From the IMG/VR virus record IMGVR_UViG_3300033075_001165: 20,000 nucleotides of DNA, one strand, 5' to 3'. The DNA is from an uncultured virus (IMG/VR IMGVR_UViG_3300033075_001165) (lineage: Duplodnaviria > Heunggongvirae > Uroviricota > Caudoviricetes). This document shows positions 8,170-20,000 of the stretch, in pieces. Positions within the stretch are counted from its first letter, which is position 1. Each line of letters begins with the position of its first letter. The position numbers and the translations under genes were made by a program. The notes under the pieces were generated by a model. It saw nothing but the letters and a program-made list of their open reading frames with translations. It had not been told where the DNA came from and searched no databases.

Positions 8170-8451
8170 TTAACTAAGTAATTCTAAATCAGTGTAATTA
8201 GTTTTAGTGTTTCGTTTTTTATGGTATTTACGTTGATATTTTTTGCGGGATTTTGTTAATCCTTTCTTCTTATTTCCATGTGTTTTTATAACTCCAAAAA
8301 AGGGTACGTCCAATCTAAATACCTGACCTCTTTTTAACACTCTGTTTATAGGAGAAACATAAGACTGTATTATCATACGAATGGCTTTTTCTTCAAATCT
8401 TGGATTCATCCGCGATAATTTTCTGTAAATATTATCCTTCTTAACTAGCAA
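8170..8451 (-). CDS. HU/IHF-like small basic DNA-binding protein (divergent)
   Basis: Helical N-terminus then VLKRGQVFRLDVPFFGVIK resembling the HU L..G..V...FG.F motif; very basic tail. Confidence 0.5.
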   Translation of the reverse strand: MLVKKDNIYRKLSRMNPRFEEKAIRMIIQSYVSPINRVLKRGQVFRLDVPFFGVIKTHGNKKKGLTKSRKKYQRKYHKKRNTKTNYTDLELLS

Positions 8452-9337
8452 TAGATAGTGTTTTTGTTTGATTTAAAGAATTATTTAATAACAAAGCGTC
8501 TACCTTATCAAAGTTGTTTTGCATTCCTTGTATGGTTAATCTGCAATAATAATCGCGGGTAGTTTGAATATCGGCGTGTCCTAAAAATTCACTTACGTAC
8601 ATATCAGAAGCGCCGTTATCAAGTAGGTGGGTGGCACGGGATGAGCGTAATATATGTGGATAAACTCTTTTATCTATTCCGCAAAGCTTGGCAGTGTTTT
8701 TAATAATATTTTCCACTGATTTAGCGGAATATTGCAATCTACCACCATCACCGTTAAATACATAAACGTGGGGGACAAAATCGGCTAAGTATTGGATAAG
8801 TAGTTCTTTTGTTTGTTCAGGGATTGTAATCACTCTGCTTTTACCATATTTGCTTCCTATTATTGTTATTCTTCTATCGTGGGATAAATGCTCTATTTTA
8901 AGATTAAGTAGTTCTCCGCGCCTTAAAGCGCCATAATAAAGCAAATTAATAATCGCCAGATGTTTTAAATAAATAGGGGCATTACACATAGCCATACATT
9001 CTTGATAACTTAAAATGTTAGGAGTTTTAAGGGGATTGTCGTGATATTCTAAGTTTTTACATTGAGTGTATTTGCCATTAATTTTATAAAGACGTTTTAT
9101 AGATGCTATGAATGAATTTATATAAGCTGGAGAATATTCTTGTTCTTTTAAATAAACAATATAATCTTCAAGTTTTTCTTGGTTGCACAGTAGCACTGAA
9201 ATAGAGTCAAATTTACCCCATTCCATAAACATTCCTATGTTGTTACAATAAGTTTTAGCAGTTTTGAAATTTCCACCAACTGCCAAAATCTTTCGACTAA
9301 ATTTTTTTAAAAATTCTTTATTTTCTTCTTGTAACAT
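8441..9337 (-). CDS. Tyrosine recombinase, putative cassette integrase of the integron-like system
   Basis: Catalytic set intact: LRRGE (R), SKYGKSR (K), HILR (HxxR), LGH, TTRDYY (Y). No IntI-type insertion between the K loop and YVF. Divergent from an attI-like site 45 bp upstream. Confidence 0.9.
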   Translation of the reverse strand: MLQEENKEFLKKFSRKILAVGGNFKTAKTYCNNIGMFMEWGKFDSISVLLCNQEKLEDYIVYLKEQEYSPAYINSFIASIKRLYKINGKYTQCKNLEYHDNPLKTPNILSYQECMAMCNAPIYLKHLAIINLLYYGALRRGELLNLKIEHLSHDRRITIIGSKYGKSRVITIPEQTKELLIQYLADFVPHVYVFNGDGGRLQYSAKSVENIIKNTAKLCGIDKRVYPHILRSSRATHLLDNGASDMYVSEFLGHADIQTTRDYYCRLTIQGMQNNFDKVDALLLNNSLNQTKTLSIAS

Positions 9338-9385
9338 ATTGATTGTTAATTTGTTTTTATATAGAATGCGTTAATAAGAGAGTTA
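9292..9385 (+). repeat. 94-bp direct repeat copy 1: integrase 5' end plus attI-like site (attI-1, crossover G|TT at 9382)
   Basis: 93/94 identical to 15448-15541 (single C/T at 9328 vs 15484); identity stops right after ...AGAGAGTTA. Confidence 0.92.
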
Positions 9386-9425
9386 TGTTCAATTTTATTT
9401 TATTAATTTTTAAAAGCCTACGCAC

Positions 9426-9773
9426 CTATGTTCGTGTATAGTCAATCCCTCTATCATCATAATCCCAATCACTATCAATAGTAAATTTATCAATCATTTC
9501 TGTTTGGTATTCTATTGATTTTTTCAGCCCCTCAATTTGCGTTTTAAGTCCTTTTACTTTCAACTCTCTTTGCTCTTTAATGTATTGTTTTGCTTCATCT
9601 AAACTTTTGAAATATTTATCTGAAACCATACTTAAACAAATTCGCCAATTGTATTCAGTTCCTCTGCTTCTCAACGCTCTAACAAATGCGTATCTGTCTG
9701 TCAGGTTTACGCAATCACGTTCCCATATTCTAACTAAATCATCTTTTACTACATACACTTTGAAAAATTCCAT
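9426..9773 (-). CDS. Cassette 1 hypothetical protein
   Basis: ATG at 9773 (MEFFKVY...) preferred; the upstream in-frame extension to 9818 runs through an inverted repeat. Confidence 0.7.
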   Translation of the reverse strand: MEFFKVYVVKDDLVRIWERDCVNLTDRYAFVRALRSRGTEYNWRICLSMVSDKYFKSLDEAKQYIKEQRELKVKGLKTQIEGLKKSIEYQTEMIDKFTIDSDWDYDDRGIDYTRT

Positions 9774-9834
9774 TTCCTTCGCTTTTTTAAAAATTAATAA
9801 AATAAAACTGCCACACACACTTGCCTACGCACCA

Positions 9835-9914
9835 ACATAACACAACCTAAAATCAAACCGCCATCACCAAACCGCTTATAAAGGCGGTCAGCTTTTAGCT
9901 TGATGCCGTTAGCG
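9835..9914 (+). other. attC-like site 1 (80 bp)
   Basis: ACATAAC-A-CAACCTAAAA..ACCGCC / GGCGGT..TTTTAGCTTG-ATGCC-GTTAGCG; AACATAAC complements GTTATGTT at 9382. Confidence 0.85.
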
Positions 9915-9920
9915 GTAATG

Positions 9921-10703
9921 CTAAAAACCGCATCGCTGACAAGCAATCTCATAATATTTAGGTTCTTTTTCAATCCCGATAAATTTACGGTTAAGTTCTT
10001 TTGCAGCCAAGCAAGTAGTTCCGCTTCCCATAGTGTTATCCATCACATTCATTCCTTCGTTAGTAAATGTACTAATCAACCACTTTAATAAACCTATTGG
10101 CTTTTCTGTTCTATGCTTTGCAATACTTGGATGTATTTTTTCAAAAGTCAATATACTTTTAGGGTGTTTCATATCACCAAGTATTTCTTTATTATCCACA
10201 AAATCAAACGCACCATAGTTATTATTGGCAGTTTGTTTTGGCTTCCCTTTACTGTGGTTTGGTTTTCCTTTTACTTTTTGTGGGTTGTAAATCGGCTGTT
10301 TTCTATAAAATACCATTATATCCTCGTGGCTTCGTAAAGGCATCCTGTTTGCGTTTAAAAATCCACTTGTAAGCACTTTGTCCCAAATCAAATTGTATTT
10401 ATGGTTTTTATCACTAAGCATCATTAATGCAGTAAACTTGTCCTGCCCAAATAAAACAATCGGAGCGTTTGGTTTTACAATTCGCCAATACTGTTCCCAT
10501 AAATTTTCAGGGTCAATCATTATATCATCTTTATTTTGCGTTACCTCATAAGGCAAATCGCAAAGCACCATATCAATACTATTATCAGGTATCAAAGGCA
10601 TAATATCCAAGCAATCGCCTTGAAATAAAGCACTACCGCTAACATCGGCTATATGCAATAGCGGGGTCGGTGCGTTCTTCAACATTTGTTCTACTATCAT
10701 CAT
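9921..10703 (-). CDS. Cassette 2: amino (m6A/m4C) DNA methyltransferase, beta class
   Basis: GDCLD, DLPY (motif IV) N-terminal; H.TEKP and DNTMGSGTT (motif I) C-terminal. Confidence 0.92.
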   Translation of the reverse strand: MMIVEQMLKNAPTPLLHIADVSGSALFQGDCLDIMPLIPDNSIDMVLCDLPYEVTQNKDDIMIDPENLWEQYWRIVKPNAPIVLFGQDKFTALMMLSDKNHKYNLIWDKVLTSGFLNANRMPLRSHEDIMVFYRKQPIYNPQKVKGKPNHSKGKPKQTANNNYGAFDFVDNKEILGDMKHPKSILTFEKIHPSIAKHRTEKPIGLLKWLISTFTNEGMNVMDNTMGSGTTCLAAKELNRKFIGIEKEPKYYEIACQRCGF

Positions 10704-10766
10704 TCGTTCTATATTTTAAGTTTTGTGTTTCAAATCCGCTACTGCACATAGCCGTAGTCGTTATAC
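10637..10766 (+). other. attC-like site 2 (130 bp)
   Basis: CGCTAAC-AT-CGGCTATATGCAATAGCGG / CCGCTACTGCACATAGCCG-TAGTC-GTTATAC; AGCACTACCGCTAAC complements the cassette start GTTAGCGGTAATGCT at 14/15. Confidence 0.9.
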
Positions 10767-10773
10767 ATCATTT

Positions 10774-10820
10774 TATACTACAAAGATAATAAAAGGTTAC
10801 AATATTTAATAACTTTATTT
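10774..10820 (-). promoter_or_regulatory. Bacteroidetes-type promoter pointing into array 1 and the integrase
   Basis: TATCTTTG at 10781-10788; about 45 bp aligns with the 8117-8162 promoter. Confidence 0.65.
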
Positions 10821-10852
10821 GTTAAATGTTTAAAACTTGGTTCATCCGCCGA

Positions 10853-12220
10853 TTAAAACGTTTCATTACTACCACTTGAAATACCCTCTGGAACGTAATC
10901 AGAGTACTTAGAATAGCGTCCGTCAAATCGGGCATATACAGGTCTGGGTGTAACATATCTGCTCTTACCAAGCCCTATTTCAACTACACCCTTTAAACTA
11001 TTGCCGTTTTCATCCACTGGATTCTTATCATAATATTCTGGGCGGTATAACAACAACACTAATATACCAACAGCCTCGATGCCTCCTGAGCCTTTTAAAT
11101 CGCTCATGCGAGGGCGAGGGGGCACACGTCTTTCAACATCGCGGGATAACTGAGATAATAGCACCATGCAAATATTGTATTTCTTAGCGATATTATTTAA
11201 TTGTTGACAACGCAAGTCTAATATCTGTTCATCTGATTTATTTTTTATTTCGTCAGGGGTATTGTTCATTAACTGCAAGTAATCTATAAAGCAAAGGATA
11301 GGGATAGTCATCGGCGTTTTTTTTCGCATCTTTCTAAATTTATTCTCCACATATTGCCAAGTTATACCCGCGGTATCATCTATCAACAGATTGTCTTTAA
11401 ATCGATTTCTTATTCCTTTAATGACGTTTATATCATCTTCGCCAGCGTTCCCGCTTCTAAGTGTAAAAGAATTGATTTCTGTGGCGTTTGATATGATGTT
11501 AGTCATAATCTCAATAGCTGGCATTTCAAGGCTAAAGAAAATAGTTGGCACTCTATCTTCAATAGCATTCTTTTTTAAGATGGTAACAAGAAACGCGGTT
11601 TTGCCCATTGCAGGGCGACCAGCGATTATATTAACCCCCTGCATTATGCCGCCAGTTTTTTCATCAAGTTCTTTTACTCCAAATGAATATCCAACTAAGG
11701 CTTTTTTATTTTCTTTAAGGTCAATTATCCTTTGTAAGGCTTCTTCAAAATATTCATCAATCTGTTTATCTTTAGATACATTATTTATTACCCCTTCAAT
11801 ATCTGTAATCTTGTTTTTAACCTTATCCAACACTTCTTGAACTTCACCATGTTCTGAACTAAAATCCGTATGAGCTTCATAGAGTACGGGTAACATTTTT
11901 CGGCGGACAAGATTATCAAATAGTATTTTCACCTTTGGCTCAGACTTAAGTGACGTGTTCATGTCAAATACAGCTTTGGAGCATAAATCTATTGATGTGT
12001 TTTTAGGATAACCAAGTTTTGTAAGTTCGTTTAAAAGAATAGAGAAATCGGTGGTAATGCTTTTTTGATGATTAAGCTTTATTATTTTATAAACCTGTTG
12101 TTTTATTTTAGAGGTAAAAATATGTTCTGAAACAAGGTGTTCGCAAGTTTCAAATAGGTCGGGCTTAGAACAGTATGTTCCAAGAATTTTATTTTCTATG
12201 TCATCAAGGTTACTGGTCAT
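10853..12220 (-). CDS. dnaB: Replicative DNA helicase, DnaB-like
   Basis: AGRPAMGKT, FFSLEM, IDYLQL, LLSQLSR, PRMSDLKGSGGIE motifs. Confidence 0.95.
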   Translation of the reverse strand: MTSNLDDIENKILGTYCSKPDLFETCEHLVSEHIFTSKIKQQVYKIIKLNHQKSITTDFSILLNELTKLGYPKNTSIDLCSKAVFDMNTSLKSEPKVKILFDNLVRRKMLPVLYEAHTDFSSEHGEVQEVLDKVKNKITDIEGVINNVSKDKQIDEYFEEALQRIIDLKENKKALVGYSFGVKELDEKTGGIMQGVNIIAGRPAMGKTAFLVTILKKNAIEDRVPTIFFSLEMPAIEIMTNIISNATEINSFTLRSGNAGEDDINVIKGIRNRFKDNLLIDDTAGITWQYVENKFRKMRKKTPMTIPILCFIDYLQLMNNTPDEIKNKSDEQILDLRCQQLNNIAKKYNICMVLLSQLSRDVERRVPPRPRMSDLKGSGGIEAVGILVLLLYRPEYYDKNPVDENGNSLKGVVEIGLGKSRYVTPRPVYARFDGRYSKYSDYVPEGISSGSNETF

Positions 12221-12765
12221 GATTTAAAATTTAAATAAGCAAATTCGCCAAAAAGTTCTTTGGCTTTTTTATCATAAGCTAAAGCTGCGTCTAATTCGTT
12301 TTTAAAACATCCTATGTGTATTTTTTTATTTTGAAATCCAATTGATGCAGTCCAAGAATAATATTCTTTTTTTATTCCGTGTTTAAGAGTGTGTTTTGTT
12401 TTTTTTAATGTAACTCCTTTGTAAATGGAGAATAGGTTTTTGTTAAACCCTCTATTAATATTGTTTTGAGAATGAGTTGCTATTCTTAAATTTATTTTCT
12501 GATTATTAACTCCGTTTCTATCGGCATGGTCTACAAATGTTTTTGGGTCTGTTAAATTCATTATAAACCTATGCATTTGCACCATTTGTCGTTTTCCAGT
12601 TAAATTATTTTTTATTCCCGCAGTAGCGTAAAAACAACTATCTCCCTTGATGGCATTCCAATTATACATATTTACTTTAAAAAAATCTTCGTCATCAACT
12701 TGAGCAAATTTTGGAGCGTCCTTGTGCTTGTTTTCTTTAAATTTGTTTAATTTTATTAATTTCAT
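12217..12765 (-). CDS. HNH homing endonuclease with C-terminal AP2 domain
   Basis: AQVDDED, MHRFIM, VDHADRNGVNNQKINLR; AP2-like W.ASI...IGCF..E.DAALAYD..A..LFGEFAYLNF. ATG at 12765 preferred over 12876. Confidence 0.9.
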   Translation of the reverse strand: MKLIKLNKFKENKHKDAPKFAQVDDEDFFKVNMYNWNAIKGDSCFYATAGIKNNLTGKRQMVQMHRFIMNLTDPKTFVDHADRNGVNNQKINLRIATHSQNNINRGFNKNLFSIYKGVTLKKTKHTLKHGIKKEYYSWTASIGFQNKKIHIGCFKNELDAALAYDKKAKELFGEFAYLNFKS

Positions 12766-12888
12766 ATTTAAAATGTTCCCTACTCCACTAAAGGCTACAC
12801 CGCTACCCTTATGGGTATTGGACAATAATGTTTCGGGAATATTTTTAATGTTTTTCATAGAACGATGTAGCGGCACAAAGATGCTAAA

Positions 12889-13254
12889 TTATTCTTTTTG
12901 AAAAAAATTATTTACTACTGAATTTTCTTTGTTATTAACAATTTTATTGACCTCAACAAACCAAACTCCCATCATTTTTTGTTTCCAGTTTTTCACTTGG
13001 TTTCCTTTAGAATCTTTCCATCCAGCTATGTCATAGTAATTAAAAGCCTTTTCTGCTGAAACTTCACTATACCCTTTCTCTTTAAAATAAGCTTTTACTT
13101 CTTCAAGTGTCGGTGGAATAAACTTAGGCTTCACTTTCTTATTATAAACACCAAGTTTAGTGAGTTGAATATTCCCATCTACTACTATATATTTAAAGAT
13201 AGTACCGTTCATTACGAACTCAGTTGATTCGGGGATTATAATAGGCTTGCTCAT
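12889..13254 (-). CDS. Replication initiator/replisome-organizer-like C-terminal domain protein
   Basis: FIPPTLEEV..YF...FNYY...GW.....VKNWK motif; upstream of DnaB. Confidence 0.65.
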   Translation of the reverse strand: MSKPIIIPESTEFVMNGTIFKYIVVDGNIQLTKLGVYNKKVKPKFIPPTLEEVKAYFKEKGYSEVSAEKAFNYYDIAGWKDSKGNQVKNWKQKMMGVWFVEVNKIVNNKENSVVNNFFQKE

Positions 13255-13601
13255 TACTCCTCAATTATAGGATTCTGAATAGTTACTTTGTTTTCTACTG
13301 GGGGTACTTGTTCTGCTAAATCACTTATAATACCTTTTTGCAACGATTTAAGCTCACTTATCAACCTTACTACATTATGCTTATGCGCTTTGTAATGCTC
13401 GTTGTAAAGAGGTCTATTGGATTCTTTTACTTTGTTTTGATAATCCAGTGTATTCTCAGCAACAATTTGAGCAAAAGAAACGGCGGCTAATGCGTTTTTG
13501 GTGGAATCAAGTTCGCTCATATCTTCGTCAAAAGAGATGCTAAATGTTTTGTCGTCATATTCTATTGAGAAATTTAGCGACCCTGTTAGTTTTTGTGTCA
13601 T
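13254..13601 (-). CDS. Hypothetical protein
   Basis: 115 aa, TAATG coupling with the next gene. Confidence 0.7.
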   Translation of the reverse strand: MTQKLTGSLNFSIEYDDKTFSISFDEDMSELDSTKNALAAVSFAQIVAENTLDYQNKVKESNRPLYNEHYKAHKHNVVRLISELKSLQKGIISDLAEQVPPVENKVTIQNPIIEE

Positions 13602-13602
13602 A

Positions 13603-15150
13603 TTATTTGGTTTTTCTATTGTTTATTTCATCAAATGCTTTTATTGCCTGTGCCTTACTTACAAATCCATCTACTTTATATCCCTTTATCCTTAATAAAT
13701 TTACCTGTGCCTCACTTGCTGGTTGAGATAAAAATATTTCATTAATCTGTTGTTTTGTGTAAGCTACATCTATAATATTAAATCCCCAATTTTTTATTGC
13801 ATTAAGCTGGGCTAAAGTTGCAGGCTCACTCATCTTAGGAGAAAGGTTTAGTTTAACACGGGGTAAAATTAATAAATTTACATGTTCATCTTTGTCTCTG
13901 TTAGTATCTATTTTTGTTAATCTTATTTCCCTGTCCTCAATTAATTTTTGTCTTTTTTCGGCTGATATAAAACATCTGTCTTGAGGTTCTTTTTCTTTTT
14001 CAATTTCGTGACAATTAATTAAATTATGTTTAGTGGTTAAATCGATAAAATCTAATACCGTCATTTTTTGACCAAATCTTCTAACGTAATTATCGTCTTT
14101 TAAACGAGTGCCGCGCCCTAATTGTTGAATGTATCGTGCCTTAGATTTAGTGGGTGCTACACATCCAATTATGCCAGTATTCGGCGCGTCAAAACCACAT
14201 GTTAAAATATTTACGTTTACTAAAACATCAATTTTACCTTCTTTGTATGCTTTAATTTTATGGCTTCTATCGCCAGTTAATTGTTCATCACTACTTACGG
14301 CTTCGGCATTCACACCTTTCATTTTGAATGATTCAACCAAGTCCAAAGCGTGTAAAATATCTACTGCAAAAAATATACCCTGTCTTCCATTACCATACTT
14401 AATATAAGAATCAGCCACCAAATTATTTCGAGACAAACAATTTACAGTTCCAGCTAATTCTTTTTGATTAAACTCCCCTCCTAATGTTTTTACTTTATCA
14501 AGACTAACGTTTGTTTTTACACGCACACAATCTATTTCACACAAATAACCTTCATCTATAGCTGTTTTAATTTCGTATTCGTAAACTTTCTCGGTAAATA
14601 AATTGCTGAGTTGTAATCCGTCAAGACGTTCGTCGGTTGCTGTTATACCGAGAAGTAATTTAGGGTTGAAATATTGGGCTGATTTAATGAATGTGGGACT
14701 CATAAAAAGATGAGCTTCGTCACATATAACAAATTCCATTTCATCAGGGTCAAATAGATGAAGGTTTCTGTGTAACGATTGAGCTGAACACATCACAATA
14801 TTACCATGTGTTTGTTTTACATCAGCCTTTACAAGTCCCATTTTAAATTCTCCGCCCGCAAAAACACCGCCATCTTTAATGTAATCAACAAATCCAAGCT
14901 CTTCTATGTGATTGGATAGGCTATCGTCAAAACGCTCTCTAATAAAGGCTAATGAGCTTTGGTCTATTAATTCTTCAGTATGGGTAATCCAAATTCCTCG
15001 TGTATAACCAAGCCTTTCAATTAGCTTAACAACTGAAAAAGTTTTACCACTTCCCACAGGTAACACCGCAAGTTGTTTATCGGAGCCTCTGTTTAGAGCT
15101 TCAATAACCGCTTCGTGAAACGTATGTTGATATGGGCGGATAGTTTTCAA
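13603..15150 (-). CDS. Superfamily 2 (DEAH) DNA helicase
   Basis: RPYQ, PVGSGKT, CDEAH, GITAT, GFDAP, QQLGRGTR; TTG start abutting the upstream stop. Confidence 0.93.
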   Translation of the reverse strand: MKTIRPYQHTFHEAVIEALNRGSDKQLAVLPVGSGKTFSVVKLIERLGYTRGIWITHTEELIDQSSLAFIRERFDDSLSNHIEELGFVDYIKDGGVFAGGEFKMGLVKADVKQTHGNIVMCSAQSLHRNLHLFDPDEMEFVICDEAHLFMSPTFIKSAQYFNPKLLLGITATDERLDGLQLSNLFTEKVYEYEIKTAIDEGYLCEIDCVRVKTNVSLDKVKTLGGEFNQKELAGTVNCLSRNNLVADSYIKYGNGRQGIFFAVDILHALDLVESFKMKGVNAEAVSSDEQLTGDRSHKIKAYKEGKIDVLVNVNILTCGFDAPNTGIIGCVAPTKSKARYIQQLGRGTRLKDDNYVRRFGQKMTVLDFIDLTTKHNLINCHEIEKEKEPQDRCFISAEKRQKLIEDREIRLTKIDTNRDKDEHVNLLILPRVKLNLSPKMSEPATLAQLNAIKNWGFNIIDVAYTKQQINEIFLSQPASEAQVNLLRIKGYKVDGFVSKAQAIKAFDEINNRKTK

Positions 15151-15423
15151 TTATACTTTAAACTCAATAGGTGAAACATTAATTGACACTATAATTTCTT
15201 CTTTTTGTAATTGTGATAAGAAAGCATTTACTAAATGTGTCTTGTATGTGTTATGGTTTTTGTTTGATAATTTCCAGCATTTCTTTTTTACATCCATCGG
15301 CAGTTCAATTTTCTTCACTTCTTCTATCCAATCATAAATAAGATGCCCGCTTGAGCAAGTTCCATGTTCATAGAATGATTTTAATCCATGTGCGATTAAT
15401 TGTGTCCGCCAATCAATTTTCAT
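15151..15423 (-). CDS. Hypothetical protein
   Basis: 90 aa, abuts the helicase start. Confidence 0.65.
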   Translation of the reverse strand: MKIDWRTQLIAHGLKSFYEHGTCSSGHLIYDWIEEVKKIELPMDVKKKCWKLSNKNHNTYKTHLVNAFLSQLQKEEIIVSINVSPIEFKV

Positions 15424-15493
15424 TTATTAGACAAATCATTGTTTTTGTTCGACTAAATTTTTTTAAAAATTCTTTATTTTCTTTTTGTAACAT
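15413..15493 (-). pseudogene. Integrase N-terminal remnant (26-aa ORF MLQKENKEFLKKFSRTKTMICLINEN)
   Basis: First 15 codons match the integrase start (one E>K change); the stop overlaps the start region of 15151-15423. Confidence 0.7.
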
Positions 15494-15541
15494 ATTGATT
15501 GTTAATTTGTTTTTATATAGAATGCGTTAATAAGAGAGTTA
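15448..15541 (+). repeat. 94-bp direct repeat copy 2: attI-like site 2 (crossover G|TT at 15538)
   Basis: 93/94 identical to 9292-9385; diverges after GTTA into cassette 3. Confidence 0.92.
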
Positions 15542-15550
15542 GCGGTAATA

Positions 15551-15937
15551 CTAATACAAGTCCTCCGAGAATAATCTGTTACCTCTAATTTCTTTAATAT
15601 CCATTACCTGATTTTCTCTCAATGCAATAATTAGTGCTTCTTCACGGCTTACAAATCTGTTTTTAGAAGTAAGAAAGCCTTGTTCATTTTCTCCGCTTTC
15701 AGCATCTCGCAAACCAGTTACAGCACATTTGGTATAAATACATTGCCCGTGTCTATGTCCGCTAAATACTAATCCTGTTGGGCAGTTTTTGGGGTTTGTG
15801 CTTTCAAATGGTATTTCCTTTTTAATCGGAATTTCTTTATACCAAACAGCAGCACATATTATTCGCTCCGAACCCGTACTACCGCTAACAGCACATAGGC
15901 AAAAAAGCCGTTTCAGTTTCATAAGAATATTTTTCAT
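15551..15937 (-). CDS. Cassette 3 hypothetical phage protein
   Basis: IICAA.W...G.RH..C...QGFLTSKNRFVSREEA..IA...Q....LFSEDLY resembles a conserved phage family; candidate starts (15946/15937/15922) all lie inside attC3. Confidence 0.8.
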   Translation of the reverse strand: MKNILMKLKRLFCLCAVSGSTGSERIICAAVWYKEIPIKKEIPFESTNPKNCPTGLVFSGHRHGQCIYTKCAVTGLRDAESGENEQGFLTSKNRFVSREEALIIALRENQVMDIKEIRGNRLFSEDLY

Positions 15938-16007
15938 AAGTATCAAATTTATCGTTTCAAATTAAGTTTTCGTTACGGCTTCTTCGCCTATCTGCAAAAC
16001 GTTAGCA
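15883..16007 (+). other. attC-like site 3 (125 bp)
   Basis: CGCTAAC-A-GCACATAGGCAAAAAAGCCGT / ACGGCTTCTTCGCCTATCTGC-AAAAC-GTTAGCA; left flank complements the cassette start at 13/14. Confidence 0.9.
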
Positions 16008-16937
16008 ACAAGCGGGTGAAGTGCTTCGATTAAGCGTTGTGCAAGTTTGACCATAATTATTTTTTTGCCATCCCACGTTGGTTTTTTCAAAACCATTTAG
16101 GAAAGAAAAAATATGTTCTACTATTCCAACAGTCCAACCATCACCAATTAAGTTACCTGCTTGTGCTTTATTTAAGTTCCGTGTATATCCTTCGGGTATA
16201 TTATGCAACCTTTCAAGTTCTGTTTGTGTGCAATATCGTACCCCTTTTGTTTCGTCCATTTTTTCATCCGTGTAAATTATAGTTGTCATTCCAGTTGTTG
16301 CGTATCGGTGCAACATATATCTTTGGTTTGCATCTCGGCCGCAACTTGTATTTAAACAAGTATGTTTTTTCTTGTCAGAATATCCGTATTCCAAAACATC
16401 GTTTAAGTATATTTTTTGGTCTTTAGGTTGTGGTATCGCACATTTTCTATTGCCAAATAAATCTCTATATTCGGGGCCTATATTAGTCCAAAACAATCTA
16501 TCTCTTAATGCTCCACTTACTCTACTTCCGCAAAGTCTTACAGGTTCGGTTCCTAATAAATCGGTTATTGTATTATATCCTAAATCGTCCATAATCACAT
16601 TTTCAAGTAAATAGTAAGTCGGTTTAGTTTCTTCCAGTAATCGAATGTATTCGTAAAATAACATTGATTTCATACCTTTTAACCCGTCTCTTACACTATT
16701 TGCCCTACTAAAGTCCTGGCACGGACTGCCGCCAATCAATAAATCAATTTTAGGCAAATCAATACCTTTTACTTTGGTTACATCTCCTATTTGTTTTGTG
16801 TTCGGGAAATTATCTAAAGTGCATTGTATTGCGTGTTTTTTAATCTCACTTGCAAAATAGTTTTCAATATTAAAACCTAAATTGTTAAGCGCAATTTGTC
16901 CGCAACTCATACCATCAAATAAACTTAATACGTTCAT
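16002..16937 (-). CDS. Cassette 4: C5-cytosine DNA methyltransferase
   Basis: LSLFDG (motif I), GGSPCQ (IV), ENV (VI), R.RLFW (VIII), GDGW (X); stop codon lies in the GTTA core. Confidence 0.92.
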   Translation of the reverse strand: MNVLSLFDGMSCGQIALNNLGFNIENYFASEIKKHAIQCTLDNFPNTKQIGDVTKVKGIDLPKIDLLIGGSPCQDFSRANSVRDGLKGMKSMLFYEYIRLLEETKPTYYLLENVIMDDLGYNTITDLLGTEPVRLCGSRVSGALRDRLFWTNIGPEYRDLFGNRKCAIPQPKDQKIYLNDVLEYGYSDKKKHTCLNTSCGRDANQRYMLHRYATTGMTTIIYTDEKMDETKGVRYCTQTELERLHNIPEGYTRNLNKAQAGNLIGDGWTVGIVEHIFSFLNGFEKTNVGWQKNNYGQTCTTLNRSTSPACC

Positions 16938-17025
16938 AAAATAATTTTTTAAAATCCCCCCCTCAAAAAAAATAATTATTACAGTTGTGTTTCAATTTAG
17001 CGGTCGGAGGTTAAAGTCCGCCAGT

Positions 17026-17124
17026 TGCTAACACGTTGTATATGTCAGTTTTGCCAATTGGCATTGTGCTTTAAATGAAAGTATGTGCGTGGCAAAACCG
17101 AACACATACAACTATTCGTTATAA
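17026..17124 (+). other. attC-like site 4 (99 bp)
   Basis: TGCTAAC-AC-GTTGTATATGTCAGTTTTGCCA / TGGCAAAACCGAACACATACAAC-TATTC-GTTATAA; left flank complements the cassette start at 13/15. Confidence 0.9.
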
Positions 17125-17367
17125 GCCATTTTGAAAATCGACCTCGTGAAATTCTTTGAAGTAATCTAAAAATTGTTTTCTCGCCCAATCGTGTTCACCT
17201 TTGCTCTCAATTTCTAAATCTTCTTTCAATAAGTCTATAACAAGTGCGTTGCCTCTAAATGACATTTTGATAATGTCACCTACTTCGCTATTTTCTACAG
17301 CATCACCGTAATCGTTTTCATTAAACCAATTTTTAGTTAGGTTATGATAATAAGTTGATTGTCCCAT
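17119..17367 (-). CDS. Cassette 5 small acidic hypothetical protein
   Basis: 82 aa; stop TAA lies in the GTTA core. Confidence 0.7.
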   Translation of the reverse strand: MGQSTYYHNLTKNWFNENDYGDAVENSEVGDIIKMSFRGNALVIDLLKEDLEIESKGEHDWARKQFLDYFKEFHEVDFQNGL

Positions 17368-17409
17368 TTTGATAGTTTAAATTGTTATGCCAAACACGAA
17401 TAAAACGGC

Positions 17410-17505
17410 TTATAACAGTGGTTTGGCAAAATACCGCCATAAGCATTTGTACTAAATTTCAACATTCTGCAAGGCGGTACTTCGCCAAGCCACCAAACGT
17501 TACCT
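17410..17505 (+). other. attC-like site 5 (96 bp)
   Basis: TTATAAC-A-GTGGTTTGGCAAAATACCGCC / GGCGGTACTTCGCCAAGCCAC-CAAAC-GTTACCT; left flank complements the cassette start at 14/15. Confidence 0.9.
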
Positions 17506-17584
17506 GCAAGTGCTACGATAGTGCTTCGTATCAAACTTTCGTGTTCAAAAATTTTAAATAAAAAGCCACCGCACTTTTGTTTTT

Positions 17585-18421
17585 TCAAAACAATTTGGTT
17601 TTTTGTTCTCGTTCCCATTCAAGTATTCGTTTTAATCCTTTATTGTAGTATTCTTTTTCTTTTTCCATTACAATATATTTTCTGTTAGTTTGTAAACAAG
17701 CTATTGCAGTTGTAAATACTCCAGCAGTATTATCAAGAACAATATCATTTTCATCGGTGTATGTTTTAATTAAATACTCAAATAGTTCAGTTGGCTTTTG
17801 TGTTGGGTGTATTGCTTTTGTGCCAATCACATTTGGGTATTCTAAAACATTGTGTGGAAATCCTGTAAACGCTTCGTATTCTACTCCAATTTGATTAGGT
17901 CTTGCACCCATCATTTCTCCGTGTGCCACAGCAGTTACTTTTTTGTTTCCAATACTAACTATTCCTTGTGGGTTATATCTCATTCTTTTTTCTCCAAGTT
18001 GTGATATATGTCCCATTGGTGCTTTGCTAAATACACAACATTCTTCAATAGCTGTCATTGGTCTATTTTTGCTATGTTGCCATCCATTCGGTTTGCTTTT
18101 CTTCCAATACCAACAATACTTAAATAGTTTAAAATTTGAGTTTATCAATACCGTTGTAAATGGCTGTGAAGCTGTCAGTATTATTACTCCGTTTGGCTTT
18201 ATTATCCTTTCGTATTGTTCCCAAAGTTTTTCAAATGGCAGTATCACATCCCATTTACAAGCAATAGTTCCATACGGCAAATCACAAAGTATCATATCAA
18301 TACTTTCATCTGCTATCAATGGCATCAATTCCAAACAATCTCCTAAGTGTTCACTACTTCGGTTAGTGCTTATGCTATACCATTCTTTTTCTTCGTCTGT
18401 ATCTAAATTAAAATTTCCCAC
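17585..18421 (-). CDS. Cassette 6: amino (m6A/m4C) DNA methyltransferase, beta class
   Basis: GDCLE, DLPY, HPTQKP, variant motif I DNTAGVFTT. Start uncertain: in-frame GTG at 18421, and the frame stays open to TTG at 18568. Confidence 0.88.
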   Translation of the reverse strand: MGNFNLDTDEEKEWYSISTNRSSEHLGDCLELMPLIADESIDMILCDLPYGTIACKWDVILPFEKLWEQYERIIKPNGVIILTASQPFTTVLINSNFKLFKYCWYWKKSKPNGWQHSKNRPMTAIEECCVFSKAPMGHISQLGEKRMRYNPQGIVSIGNKKVTAVAHGEMMGARPNQIGVEYEAFTGFPHNVLEYPNVIGTKAIHPTQKPTELFEYLIKTYTDENDIVLDNTAGVFTTAIACLQTNRKYIVMEKEKEYYNKGLKRILEWEREQKTKLF

Positions 18422-18488
18422 GCTTTTTTTATTTAAAATTTTTGTTTTGTTCTTCGTATCAAGTTTATCGTTAATAAACCGCACCAGC

Positions 18489-18564
18489 AGGTAACAAGGT
18501 ATATACGCAATTTTTCCACCGCTAAACCCAACGCACAACTGCGTATATACCCGAAACGTTAGTA
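18489..18564 (+). other. attC-like site 6 (76 bp)
   Basis: AGGTAAC-AA-GGTATATACGCA / TGCGTATATACC-CGAAAC-GTTAGTA (perfect 12-bp stem); left flank complements the cassette start at 13/15. Confidence 0.9.
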
Positions 18565-18568
18565 GCAA

Positions 18569-18832
18569 TTATTTTTTGCTACGTTCTGCACAAAATTTAC
18601 AGTTTCCTTTATGTGTCATCATTTGTGAGTAACCAACGCCTGATATTAAGTATTGGCAACTGTCAAATTCTATTATTGATATTTGATAGCCATTAACTTC
18701 TACTGCTGTTTTAAATATTTTTGAGCGTTCTTCGGCTCTATCTATTTCATCACAACCGCAAAAAATAACAGCTACTAACAGCACATAAGCAAGAGCAAAG
18801 CAATTGCGGTAATTTGAGATTTTTGTTTTCAT
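18569..18832 (-). CDS. Cassette 7: small putative lipoprotein
   Basis: FALAYVLLVAVIFCGC signal/lipobox-like; D.CQY...THKGNC..C motif. Confidence 0.75.
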   Translation of the reverse strand: MKTKISNYRNCFALAYVLLVAVIFCGCDEIDRAEERSKIFKTAVEVNGYQISIIEFDSCQYLISGVGYSQMMTHKGNCKFCAERSKK

Positions 18833-18904
18833 AATAATATTTAGTTTTAAGATTAAATTTTTGTTTTTAAGGCTTTGCCCTCGCTTATCTGCGATACGTT
18901 AACG
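18773..18904 (+). other. attC-like site 7 (132 bp)
   Basis: TACTAAC-A-GCACATAAGCAAGAGCAAAGC / GCTTTGCCCTCGCTTATCTGC-GATAC-GTTAACG; left flank complements the cassette start at 20/22. Confidence 0.92.
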
Positions 18905-18910
18905 GCAATT

Positions 18911-19255
18911 CTAATCTGCTCCCCACCGCTCGGATACATAATTCATTATATCTTTTAATTCGTCTGCTACAATGGTTGTCTGCCAGCTTCCATAAGTCAA
19001 CACCTCACAGCACCATTTTGAGGATTGCTTATCCCACCAACAATATCCGCAAAAGTTCCATCCACTATATTGTGCCGATAAATCTTTGCCCTTTATTTCT
19101 GTTGCTACTTTTTCATCTATGCAATGGTCAAAGTTGCTCATTACCGTTTCTCCGAAATCCTCAAAATGCTCAGGCAACCGCACATTAGAACTGCCGTTAA
19201 CAAGGGCTTTACTCAATGCCTCTGTTTCGTTTGTATTTGAAATTTTGTTTTCCAT
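18911..19255 (-). CDS. Cassette 8 hypothetical protein (Trp/acidic-rich)
   Basis: 114 aa; ATG inside attC8 after an A-rich tract. Confidence 0.75.
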   Translation of the reverse strand: MENKISNTNETEALSKALVNGSSNVRLPEHFEDFGETVMSNFDHCIDEKVATEIKGKDLSAQYSGWNFCGYCWWDKQSSKWCCEVLTYGSWQTTIVADELKDIMNYVSERWGAD

Positions 19256-19325
19256 TTTATGTTTTATTTTAAGTTGATAATTTCGTTTTCAAAGTCGGCA
19301 CTAAATAAAGCCCCAACCGTTAAAC
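19195..19325 (+). other. attC-like site 8 (131 bp)
   Basis: CGTTAAC-AA-GGGCTTTACTCAATGCC / GGCACTAAATAAAGCCC-CAACC-GTTAAAC; left flank complements the cassette start at 17/18. Confidence 0.92.
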
Positions 19326-19601
19326 CTCCCAATATCCTTTAAAAAAATCATTAATTTTTGTGTAAGGAATAACATCCTCAGCGTCTTTATAGATAGCTTG
19401 TATGTCTAATATAGCTCTGTTTTTGTTGTTAGACCAGCAGTCTTCACAAATGTCATACATACCTTCAAAAGATATTTTGTTCGGCATGGGGCGATTACAG
19501 CAGTTACAATCTGAGTGTATGCCAGCCTCTATTGCTCTGCTTACAAAGGCTTCCACTTCATCTGTATCGCGGAATATGGGGTTATTTATCGGGCGGTTCA
19601 T
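19320..19601 (-). CDS. Hypothetical Zn-finger-like protein (resident gene, no attC seen)
   Basis: CNCC...CEDC; its stop TAA forms the GTTA of attC8. Confidence 0.65.
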   Translation of the reverse strand: MNRPINNPIFRDTDEVEAFVSRAIEAGIHSDCNCCNRPMPNKISFEGMYDICEDCWSNNKNRAILDIQAIYKDAEDVIPYTKINDFFKGYWEV

Positions 19602-19896: not shown

Positions 19897-20000
19897 GTTT
19901 AATGCCCTAAATAAATCAAAGACGCTCTAAAATCATTAGCTCCTTCAAATTTATTGCGGGTGGCTAAGAACGTTTGTTTATCAATAGTATGGTCATCTTT

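Follow-up and report, generated by a model that had tools for sequence, protein, structure and literature searches.

A phage genome stretch with integron-like cassette arrays, a Xer-like recombinase and a recurrent A/G mark in its predicted folded sites

Introduction

Integrons are held to depend on a specialised domain of the integrase, which reads the bases that bulge from the folded attC site. Recognition of these extrahelical bases is assigned to the IntI-specific domain (Escudero 2016). Among 263 classical attC sites, the bottom strand carries 1.24 G:T mispairs and the top strand 0.39, a bias said to favour the bottom strand (Nivina 2016). Sites of the attC type also occur in phages, and in P12002L_attC2 IntI1 recombined the bottom strand, whereas no recombinants came from the top strand (Qi et al. 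2023, PMC9892861). Among Xer sites, dif consists of 11 + 6 + 11 bp (Castillo 2017).

The window analysed here is a 20,000-nucleotide stretch from an uncultured virus of the Caudoviricetes. It holds two cassette arrays, the first of them next to a gene for a tyrosine recombinase. An initial annotation, made from the letters alone, had pointed to an A/G mismatch at position 11 of the cassette ends. In this study, that mark was followed through the window and related loci, and the locus was compared with integrons and Xer systems.

Results

The recombinase gene (8441..9337, minus strand) encodes a Xer-like protein of 298 aa, the presumed cassette integrase according to profile and PDB matches. 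It matches Pfam Phage_integrase (5e-27). Models and structures of XerA, XerD and XerC match it best, with all models below their equivalog cut-offs; the best NCBIfam match is XerA (155 bits, below cut-off), and XerA and XerD are the best PDB matches. The integron-integrase model TIGR02249 reaches 81 bits in two stretches against a cut-off of 265. In the homologue from a related locus, L001, positions 5-177 and 239-306 of this model match with 21 residues between them, and positions 178-238 are missing. Membership of the IntI clade was rejected on the sub-cut-off TIGR02249 score, the absence of the IntI-specific segment, and an alignment with IntI4 that covers the last 57 residues only.

The insertion site lies about 45 nt upstream of the recombinase gene, and loci L001, L003 and L004 have the same layout. 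The gene adjoins the first cassette in all four family loci that have upstream sequence. By inspection, the site has two inverted TTA-arms around 8 bp. It is part of a 94-nt direct repeat (9292-9385 and 15448-15541, 99% identical). Copy 1 (plus strand) contains the first 46 nt of the recombinase gene and an attI-like left half. Copy 2 (plus strand) is an orphan insertion site that retains only those first 46 nt of the gene, and it opens array 2. Each copy terminates in GTTA, where the cassette begins, and the cassettes that come next differ. As in integrons, the insertion site stands beside the recombinase gene and cassettes are joined at the predicted G|TT. Array 1 closes with the putative right half of the original insertion site (10760..10785, plus strand, GTTATACATCA...), which resembles the sequence after the last site of L001 (GTTATACCTCA) and that at 19319. 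Array 2 closes with a similar candidate right half (19319..19344, plus strand, GTTAAACCTCC...), and a search to base 20000 found no more sites after 19344. Cassettes of this kind occur without this recombinase in P12002L, in phi13:2 (36 kb examined) and in LR745206.1 (49 kb examined).

Each of the eight window cassettes has a start that pairs with its own end. The annotated complementarity beyond the 7-bp core was confirmed at 14-22 bp in cassettes 2-8, where a script located the start/end pairs directly (9908/10643, 15538/15889, 16001/17032, 17118/17416, 17499/18495, 18558/18779 and 18898/19201). The cassette 1 pair (9382/9841) fits only without the 23-nt stretch 9811-9833, and setting this insert aside gives an outer pairing of 34 bp. 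At position 11, A stands at 8/8 starts, and the plus strand has C (reverse complement G) at 8/8 ends; the coordinates were verified, and the annotated count of seven direct cases plus cassette 1 without its insert was correct. Position 10 reads A/T in three cassettes (starts 16001, 17499 and 18558), as had been reported for cassettes 4, 6 and 7.

The word "invariant" in the initial annotation applies to the window and not universally. Among 33 curated cassettes from seven sources, three of them sharing arms with window cassettes and hence not independent, position 11 is A/G in 29, A/T (T.T) in three and matched in one. By source, A/G was found in eight cassettes of the window, six of L001, one of L003, 0/1 of L004, 3/4 of LR745206.1, 7/7 of Cellulophaga phage phi13:2, and 4/6 of Polaribacter phage P12002L, whose cassettes were chosen by eye and are not a blind sample. 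A scan of five sources that was blind to positions 10-11 returned 121 pairs including background, with A/G at position 11 in 34 and G/A in two. The AA of the cassette start is near-fixed (A at position 11 in 33/33, at position 10 in 12/13), and G is by far the favoured base opposite position 11, ahead of T, C or A. The A/G pair recurs with unrelated arm sequences, across phages whose recombinases share only 56% identity, and in cultured phages from two genera of hosts. The L004 cassette, a relative with a GTTG core, is paired at position 11 and has a mismatch at position 15 instead. Pairing elsewhere is not maximised, position 10 being a T.T mismatch in 12 of 25 tabulated cassettes.

Covariation of the arms was measured at positions 5-9 and 12-14 in 13 cassettes from the window and L001, with cassette 1 left out. 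A cassette's own start and end match in 103/104 cells, and the next cassette's start matches the end in 30/104. None of 156 non-self pairings reached 8/8 at these positions. The pairing of start and end is therefore beyond chance. Positions 5-7 take all four bases, and conservation is limited to GTTA and to G-Y-A-A-K at positions 8-12; the single arm sequence common to all sites that characterises Xer/dif systems is absent. The positions flanking position 11 stay perfectly paired.

A second A/G mismatch lies in the inner stem of the sites. It follows TAAC by 15 nt in 14 of 18 sites and by 16 nt in the other four, and its G is on the opposite arm, as dyad symmetry with position 11 predicts. The R''-6-L'' left half reads 11 + 6 + 11 in 14/14 tabulated sites, which is the Xer/dif arrangement of two 11-bp half-sites round a 6-bp centre, and the two marks are 25-26 nt apart. 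Position 11 is outside a 7-bp IntI-type R box, as annotated, but it falls inside the 11-bp Xer-type half-site, at arm position 10. The inner stem alone finds eight sites in the window and six in L001. As in integrons, imperfect palindromes end the cassettes, with the R' half supplied by the cassette's own start. In duplex DNA, R' and L'' arms read AA, and R'' and L' arms read (A/T)G. Every R''-6-L'' unit consists of a G-type arm, 6 nt and an A-type arm in the same polarity, and some inner arms (e.g., W1) repeat the AA versus TG pattern.

Array 1 contains two cassettes; all cassette coordinates are on the plus strand. Cassette 1 (9382..9907) has an outer stem, an inverted repeat, of 9382-9415 with 9785-9810 plus 9834-9841; its position 11 is A 9392 and C 9808, and its inner wobble is A 9856 and C 9889. 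Cassette 2 (9908..10759) carries an N6/N4 DNA methyltransferase ORF (9921-10703, minus strand) whose only in-frame start codons are in the loop of the site; its position 11 is A 9918 and C 10633, and its inner wobble is A 10658 and C 10742.

Array 2 contains the other six. Cassette 3 (15538..16000; ORF 15551-15946, minus strand, phrog_839) has A 15548 and C 15879 at position 11, and A 15904 and C 15982 in the inner stem. Cassette 4 (16001..17117; C5 DNA methyltransferase ORF 16002-16937, minus strand) has A 16011 and C 17022, and A 17047 and C 17099. Cassette 5 (17118..17498; ORF 17119-17367, minus strand) has A 17128 and C 17406, and A 17431 and C 17480. Cassette 6 (17499..18557) carries an N6/N4 DNA methyltransferase, with A 17509 and C 18485, and A 18510 and C 18539. 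Cassette 7 (18558..18897; ORF 18569-18832, minus strand) has A 18568 and C 18769, and A 18794 and C 18879; a hydrophobic N-terminal stretch is encoded by its outer-stem arm. Cassette 8 (18898..19318; ORF 18911-19255, minus strand) has A 18908 and C 19191, and A 19216 and C 19301.

In every window cassette the ORF lies on the minus (bottom) strand, and several of these ORFs begin within the loop. The integron pattern of promoterless top-strand genes read from a common promoter is not seen; lying on the folding strand and starting in the site's loop, the genes seem to be self-expressed. One L001 cassette has its ORF on the other strand, with the polarity of the mark unchanged. Cassette 6 is precisely absent in contigs of two other runs (X3 and X4), where the joint 17494 -> 18554, between two AAACGTTA stretches, leaves out 1059 bases and has 8 letters in common. 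These contigs are short, the lesser side of the joint comprising 30 and 22 letters, and were matched at 90% likeness.

Both strands of the sites were folded. In circular form, the minus strand folds better in 14/14 sites (mean 4.05 kcal/mol), and with the outer stem included it is ahead in 13/13 (mean 4.86 kcal/mol). G:T pairs number 3.92 on the minus strand versus 1.31 on the plus strand. In the array context, minus-strand energy is lower in 8/8 sites and the z-score more negative in 7/8. The outer stem can form only in the excised circle or over long range. The predicted folded forms have T.G at position 10 of both half-sites on the minus strand and A.C on the plus strand; the annotated cassette/attC reading and its consequence, G.T on one strand and A.C on the other, were sound. 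The position-11 wobble contributes merely about 0.8 of the mean 4.9 kcal/mol strand difference. Because this share is small and T.T replaces the wobble in some cassettes, base identity probably outweighs stability; what matters more is probably that T is kept on the strand predicted to be cut, with never an A opposite.

Discussion

The window carries a phage-borne integron-like cassette platform with a Xer-like tyrosine recombinase as its presumed enzyme, and we consider it an even call that the mark discriminates between strands or arms, which is the best reading. Together, position 11 and the dyad-symmetric inner A/G suggest that the folded minus strand mimics an 11-6-11 Xer core site. Each cassette runs from a TTA-start through the minus-strand gene, R'' arm, 6 nt, L'' arm, loop, L' arm and 9-10 nt to G, with the 5' end of the gene in the loop between the L'' and L' arms. 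In the excised circle, the minus strand would fold to pair R' with R'' and L' with L'', giving a duplex of the Xer core shape with 3-4 extra unpaired bases on one side. Position 11 corresponds to position 10 of the outer half-site, and the inner half-site mirrors this feature. The folded minus strand would present T in both half-sites on the strand running toward the centre, and this T-bearing strand is the predicted cut strand, cut after TAA next to C. Opposite the marked T would stand G, sometimes T and never A, and the folded plus strand would read C opposite A. With such a two-position code and a bulged spacer, the recombinase could distinguish the minus strand from the plus strand, and by the same code it could recognise which arm is active and which is the inverted copy. 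A cassette would accordingly be inserted at the site in a single orientation. Direct observation covers the anatomy and its conservation, the covarying arms, fold energies that differ by strand, and the presence or absence of one whole cassette; folding in vivo, action of this recombinase on the folded DNA, the position of the cut and a causal part for the wobble are inferred. The initial annotation had proposed a structural determinant for strand choice, and this is the best-supported role; position 11 is, however, half of a pair whose inner twin had been missed.

The mark might act as a weak spot and not as a wobble. The T residues at positions 10-11 of the minus arm would be poorly paired so that the recombinase could flip or grip them, with G as the least costly non-partner. 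The variable partner (T.T at position 10 in nearly half of the tabulated cassettes and occasionally at position 11) beside a near-fixed AA is consistent with this, as are the inner arms with AA versus TG and the analogy to IntI with the extrahelical bases of classical attC sites. We nevertheless regard it as unlikely, since the recombinase is without the IntI-specific domain and the prevalence of G opposite position 11 (29/33) fits selection for pairing.

Double-stranded DNA could also carry the code. A-type (…AA) and G-type (…WG) arms would be two binding sites like those of XerC and XerD, no folding would be needed, and the array would consist of Xer-type sites flanking modules. The single polarity of the R''-6-L'' units agrees with this arrangement, pdif/xrs cassettes are genes flanked in a comparable way, and some inner-arm pairs of P12002L enclose whole genes (e.g., 40158-40544 with an HNH gene). 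A protein on duplex DNA does not explain why arms are free between cassettes and identical within them. The mismatches are moreover G.T on one strand only, and the observed junctions fall at GTTA, which belongs to the unit whose spacer is 9-10 nt and not to the 6-nt one. This makes the duplex code quite doubtful.

Structure at the RNA level is very improbable. The minus strand is the sense strand for all but one ORF, and G.T on the coding strand would become G-U in mRNA stems (a 5'-3' closing stem or intergenic hairpins) that serve stability or termination. A transcript beginning inside the loop would be without the 5' arm of the hairpin, insertion-site junctions and a cassette-sized deletion are DNA events, and the L001 cassette with the opposite ORF keeps the polarity of the mark. 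A scar of cassette genesis or a mutational bias without present function, the first of which the initial annotation had also offered, has nothing in its favour and is hardly credible, given that the same pair type persists with unrelated arms, diverged recombinases and cultured phages of two host genera, has a mirrored twin in the inner stem, and is flanked by perfectly paired positions.

Returning to the folded minus strand, we tentatively suggest, at somewhat below even confidence, that these arrays represent another, independently arisen way to recombine cassettes through a folded single strand. The enzyme, a compact phage protein of the Xer type that does without the IntI-specific domain, would recognise two mirror-image mismatches, T.G (or T.T) at base ten in each 11-bp half-site, as a strand code that replaces extrahelical bases. 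The window has a plain Xer-like enzyme at the head of arrays whose sites bear a strand mark that is different and highly regular. Should its proposed role hold, the mark would be a simple rule, open to mutation, by which single-strand recombination chooses its strand, and an experimental entry to the origin of integron-type recombination from Xer systems. If this second way exists, attC-like sites and cassette arrays are possible without the I2 domain, and the question "which came first" in integron origin (Escudero 2016) gains a living model. A cassette platform would explain how methyltransferases that counter restriction, along with other small accessory genes, are shuffled among phages of Bacteroidota. 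Cultured phages (P12002L and phi13:2) also have sites of the family, making bench tests feasible.

In the literature searched, no description of the fixed positions, the long outer stem or the non-IntI enzyme was found. The word "wobble" is absent in the available portions of Bouvier 2009, Nivina 2016, Mukhortava 2018 and Escudero 2016, and Nivina 2016 speaks of "G:T mispairs".

Classical integrons share with the window a recombinase gene divergent from the adjacent insertion site, arrays with R''-L''...L'-R' palindromes, G|TT junctions, a cassette start that pairs with its own R'', and more G:T on the better-folding strand. The window differs in an enzyme without the IntI-specific segment, in outer pairing of 14-22 bp versus their 7-bp R box, in fixed non-Watson-Crick positions at arm position 10 of both half-sites, and in genes that lie on the folding strand and start in the loop of the site.

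Phage CALINs include the same type of cassette. In P12002L (Qi et al. 2023, PMC9892861), position 11 is A/G in 4/6 and A/T in 2/6, one start is near-identical to that of window cassette 7, and the cargo is DNA methyltransferases. The supplement primer for P12002L_attC2 terminates in the first bases of the P12002L cassette that starts at 29237 (PMC9892861). Qi et al. (2023) treat the sites as ordinary attC without an integrase; in the available portions of that paper there is no mention of a Xer-like recombinase (0 occurrences of "xer"), of mispairs at fixed positions or of an extended outer stem.

The pdif modules, or xrs cassettes, of Acinetobacter plasmids are likewise chains of accessory genes flanked by mostly inverted Xer-type sites. 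As described, they have conserved XerC/XerD arms and use host enzymes on duplex DNA, whereas the window has covarying arms and strand-specific G.T; the variability of the arms argues against membership of this family.

In CTX-phi attP, a Xer-family enzyme (XerCD) acts on a folded single strand of about 150 nt that mimics a two-arm core, the dif site, with one strand exchanged (Castillo 2017). The window would share this mode of action, and it differs in a phage-encoded enzyme, in arms free of fixed sequence, and in sites that bound mobile cassettes in arrays, where CTX-phi inserts a whole phage into the host dif site.

Outer Stem and Position 11

Cassette sites in this phage DNA are attC-like, and each cassette start pairs with its own R'' arm. 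Start and end of the same cassette match in 103 of 104 cells at positions 5-9 and 12-14, compared to 30 of 104 when the end is set against the neighboring cassette's start. None of 156 non-self pairings has 8/8 matches (mean 3.12). Therefore, the outer stem is real, joins a cassette's own two ends, and covaries. The initial annotation reported outer repeats of 14-22 bp with A at the start and G in the reverse-complemented end (A/G) at position 11, and these features were reproduced: all seven direct start/end pairs are A/G, cassettes 4, 6, and 7 (starting at 16001, 17499, and 18558) have A/T at position 10, and cassette 1 (starting at 9382) conforms once a 23-nt stretch (9811-9833) is set aside. 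This insert in the cassette 1 outer stem includes GCCTACGCACC, a motif also present after the outer stem at the start of the same cassette (9416-9426). In L001, a relative locus with the same recombinase family, GCCTACGCAC follows a cassette's outer stem around 4473 (reverse complement); the motif thus recurs.

The mismatch had also been proposed as invariant. In homologous arrays, A/G is found in 6/6 cassettes of L001, in a 54-bp empty cassette of relative locus L003, and in 7/7 cassettes of Cellulophaga phage phi13:2. Polaribacter phage P12002L has A/G in 4/6 (two A/T), and the huge uncultured phage LR745206.1 has A/G in 3/4 (one A/T). In a curated set of 33 cassettes, A is the start-side base throughout, and conservation of the mismatch stood in 29 (A/G) and failed in four, three being A/T and one matched. 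Pairs outside arrays were excluded from this count, as were P12002L 14622-15197 (a G/A cassette in inverted orientation, which obeys the rule on the opposite strand), P12002L 40158-40544 and 40768-40939 (GTTT cores, A/G at position 12, interpreted as inner arms), phi13:2 19864-20782 (palindromic core, A/T), and phi13:2 23386-24009 and 23386-25927 (overlap with another cassette). Because the 33 include three whose arm sequences recur in window cassettes, and because P12002L rows were selected by eye, a scan blind to positions 10-11 was run on five sources. Its 121 pairs, background included, contained 34 A/G and two G/A, one of the latter being an inverted P12002L cassette. In relative locus L004, which has a GTTG core, position 11 is paired and position 15 is mismatched, possibly reflecting a shifted code in a subclade. 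L004 has a 59%-identical recombinase. Its first mini-cassette (within 1-270, reverse complement), after which the contig ends, is C/T at position 15.

Second Mark and Site Layout

Alignment of L'' with the reverse complement of L' revealed a second mark. An A/G mismatch lies in the inner stem 15 nt past TAAC in 14/18 sites; the other four have it at 16 nt with one extra bulged A each, giving 18/18. The second mark and position 11 share their local context (CAAT vs. CAGT, AAAT vs. AAGT). Read on the + strand, all left halves are built alike, from an 11-nt arm that closes with TAA, 6 nt with C in first place, and another 11-nt arm. The inner-mark A occupies position 10 of the second arm, and position 11 of the cassette start corresponds to position 10 of the outer arm. 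In the folded - strand, the outer mark is T (5' arm) opposite G (3' arm) and the inner mark is G (5' arm) opposite T (3' arm), which is exactly the arrangement predicted by a two-fold axis through the spacer. The right half of the site has 3-4 additional spacer bases, which would bulge. The 11-6-11 layout is like that of dif sites, described in the relevant part of a review as two 11-bp half-sites around 6 bp; the same source presents CTX-phi attP as single-stranded DNA folded to mimic a dif-type site (Castillo, 2017).

Strand Asymmetry

Folding both strands of the circular cassette forms, a check put forward with the original observation, favored the - strand in 14/14 sites (mean 4.05 kcal/mol), and in 13/13 (mean 4.86 kcal/mol) when 16 nt of outer stem were included. 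The - strand is also richer in G:T pairs (mean 3.92, compared to 1.31 on the + strand). In array context, its energy is lower in 8/8 sites and its z-score more negative in 7/8, the exception being the cassette 5 site. Position 11 accounts for only about 0.8 kcal/mol. For 263 attC sites, the available text of Nivina (2016) gives 1.24 G:T mispairs on bottom strands vs. 0.39 on top strands, with bottom strands folding 2.12 kcal/mol better; thus, the principle is already published.

Recombinase and Phage Context

The window is phage DNA encoding a tail-fibre-like protein, a RusA-like resolvase, a NinB-like protein, a DnaB helicase, an SF2 helicase, and HNH endonucleases. A homing-endonuclease-like gene (940-1689) lies between tail-fibre-like genes, and a string of GAT tripeptide repeats occurs in the protein of 1709-2203. 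Family-model and structure matches identify a tyrosine recombinase of 298 aa at 8441-9337 (- strand). XerA, XerD, and XerC are the family models it matches best, each scoring below its cut-off. The integron integrase model TIGR02249 scores 81 bits (cut-off 265) in two pieces. Among solved structures, XerA and XerD align end to end, and IntI4 aligns only over the last 57 residues. The L001 homolog (56% identical) skips TIGR02249 positions 178-238, with just 21 residues between the flanking matches. Given the low split score, the partial IntI4 alignment, and the skipped segment, the enzyme is not an IntI.

Metagenomes contain about 80 protein clusters at least 49% identical to the recombinase. 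A metagenome scan returned 80 loci, among which the family members were L003 and L004, both truncated near the array. No relative was found by a profile scan of GTDB genome contigs or by scans of viral contigs with a single protein and with an exact pattern. Searching INPHARED phages by tblastn gave distant integrases only (≤38% identical), and blastn of the recombinase region against phages gave no match. The cassette 6/7 site matched one record by blastn, LR745206.1. A search based solely on the inner stem recovered all eight sites of the window and six in L001.

Insertion Site and Arrays

Cassettes 1-2 form array 1 and cassettes 3-8 form array 2, and replication genes separate the two. A 94-nt direct repeat (9292-9385 and 15448-15541, copies 99% identical) spans upstream DNA and the recombinase gene's first 46 nt. 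Both copies terminate in GTTA with a different cassette next to each, and we read the repeat as the probable left half of an attI-like insertion site. Sequences past the last site are alike in both arrays and L001 (GTTATACATCA at 10760, GTTAAACCTCC at 19319, and GTTATACCTCA in L001), and we infer that they form the right half. In 9338-9385 and the upstream regions of L001, L003, and L004, two inverted TTA-arms flank 8 bp; all four loci conserve the left arm, ATGCGTTAA (ATGCTTTAA in L001), which resembles a canonical duplex core site. The orphan insertion site heading array 2 (15448-15541) retains just the initial 46 nt (15 codons) of a recombinase gene and has its own six-cassette array; it is a duplicated site or else what is left of a second platform. 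One recombinase would then serve two arrays within a single phage.

Cassette Genes and Mobility

Three window cassettes encode DNA methyltransferases, and all cassette ORFs of the window are on the - strand. Several start within the site loop and run through the L'' and R'' arms. In loop-start genes at 10644-10703, 15890-15946, 18780-18832, and 19202-19255, these arms code for N-terminal residues. The cassette 7 protein has a signal-peptide-like N-terminus whose hydrophobic core is encoded by the outer arm. A common 50-nt repeat family, D2, is present in the loops and may hold promoters. In P12002L, outer-arm and inner-arm pairs alternate over 40047-40950 with ACC alone between them, and one inner pair (40158-40544) encloses a complete HNH endonuclease gene; therefore, both "loops" of a site can carry genes.

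Contigs of two other sequencing runs connect 17494 to 18554 with 8 letters common to both sides, a joint that takes out exactly cassette 6. Further contigs start precisely at 15538, and loose ends occur at 9908. These joints are modest support for cassette mobility because the contigs are short and were placed at 90% likeness; stretches of the window with thin or uneven coverage are uninformative. Many short joints inside the two N6 methyltransferases look like paralogue cross-matches and were left out. An X9 contig matches 15538-15894 only, and a 33-nt shared piece lies at 17399-17431. Both could mean exchange at the R''-L'' unit, and are equally explained by divergence and short contigs. Outside the cassette arrays, mosaicism is seen where other-run contigs have 214 different letters in place of the HNH endonuclease gene region (12199-13081) and 1232 in place of the SF2 helicase gene's first half (13914-15151).

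Proposed Mechanism

The proposal that position 11 is a conserved structural determinant for strand choice is partly supported, and the mirrored inner mark extends it to a two-mark, Xer-like half-site code. The substrate would be the folded - strand of the cassette site, and cleavage would follow the TAA adjacent to the outer arm, in the manner of integron integrases acting on the bottom strand. Strand and arm would be told apart by the paired marks. In both half-sites, the strand running toward the center would hold T at arm position 10, with a partner that is never A, and the + strand would therefore have C opposite A at both places. In duplex DNA, the inverted arm copies R'' and L' would differ from the active-type arms R' and L''. 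The main rival is that the marks serve as weak spots or in base flipping. T.T is found at position 10 in 12/25 and occasionally at position 11, so pairing strength alone is an incomplete explanation. A purely double-stranded, pdif-like model was set aside since it leaves unexplained free arm sequences that are identical within a cassette. Readings of the mismatch as a scar of cassette genesis or as RNA structure were considered and set aside.

Relation to Known Systems

The system is a variant of the integron kind. Our literature search found no description of fixed, mirrored mispair positions, of a 14-22-bp outer stem, of genes on the folding strand, or of a non-IntI recombinase for such cassettes. 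Two P12002L sites were classed as CALIN in the accessible text of Qi (2023), section 3.4 of which reports that IntI1 recombines P12002L attC2 solely as the bottom strand. According to the available supplement, the attC2 primer terminates in the first bases of the P12002L cassette at 29237; the term "xer" is absent from the text. The discussion of Escudero (2016), as available, asks how either of the two, the IntI-specific domain or attC sites, could have evolved in the other's absence. A cassette system lacking that domain bears directly on this question of origin.
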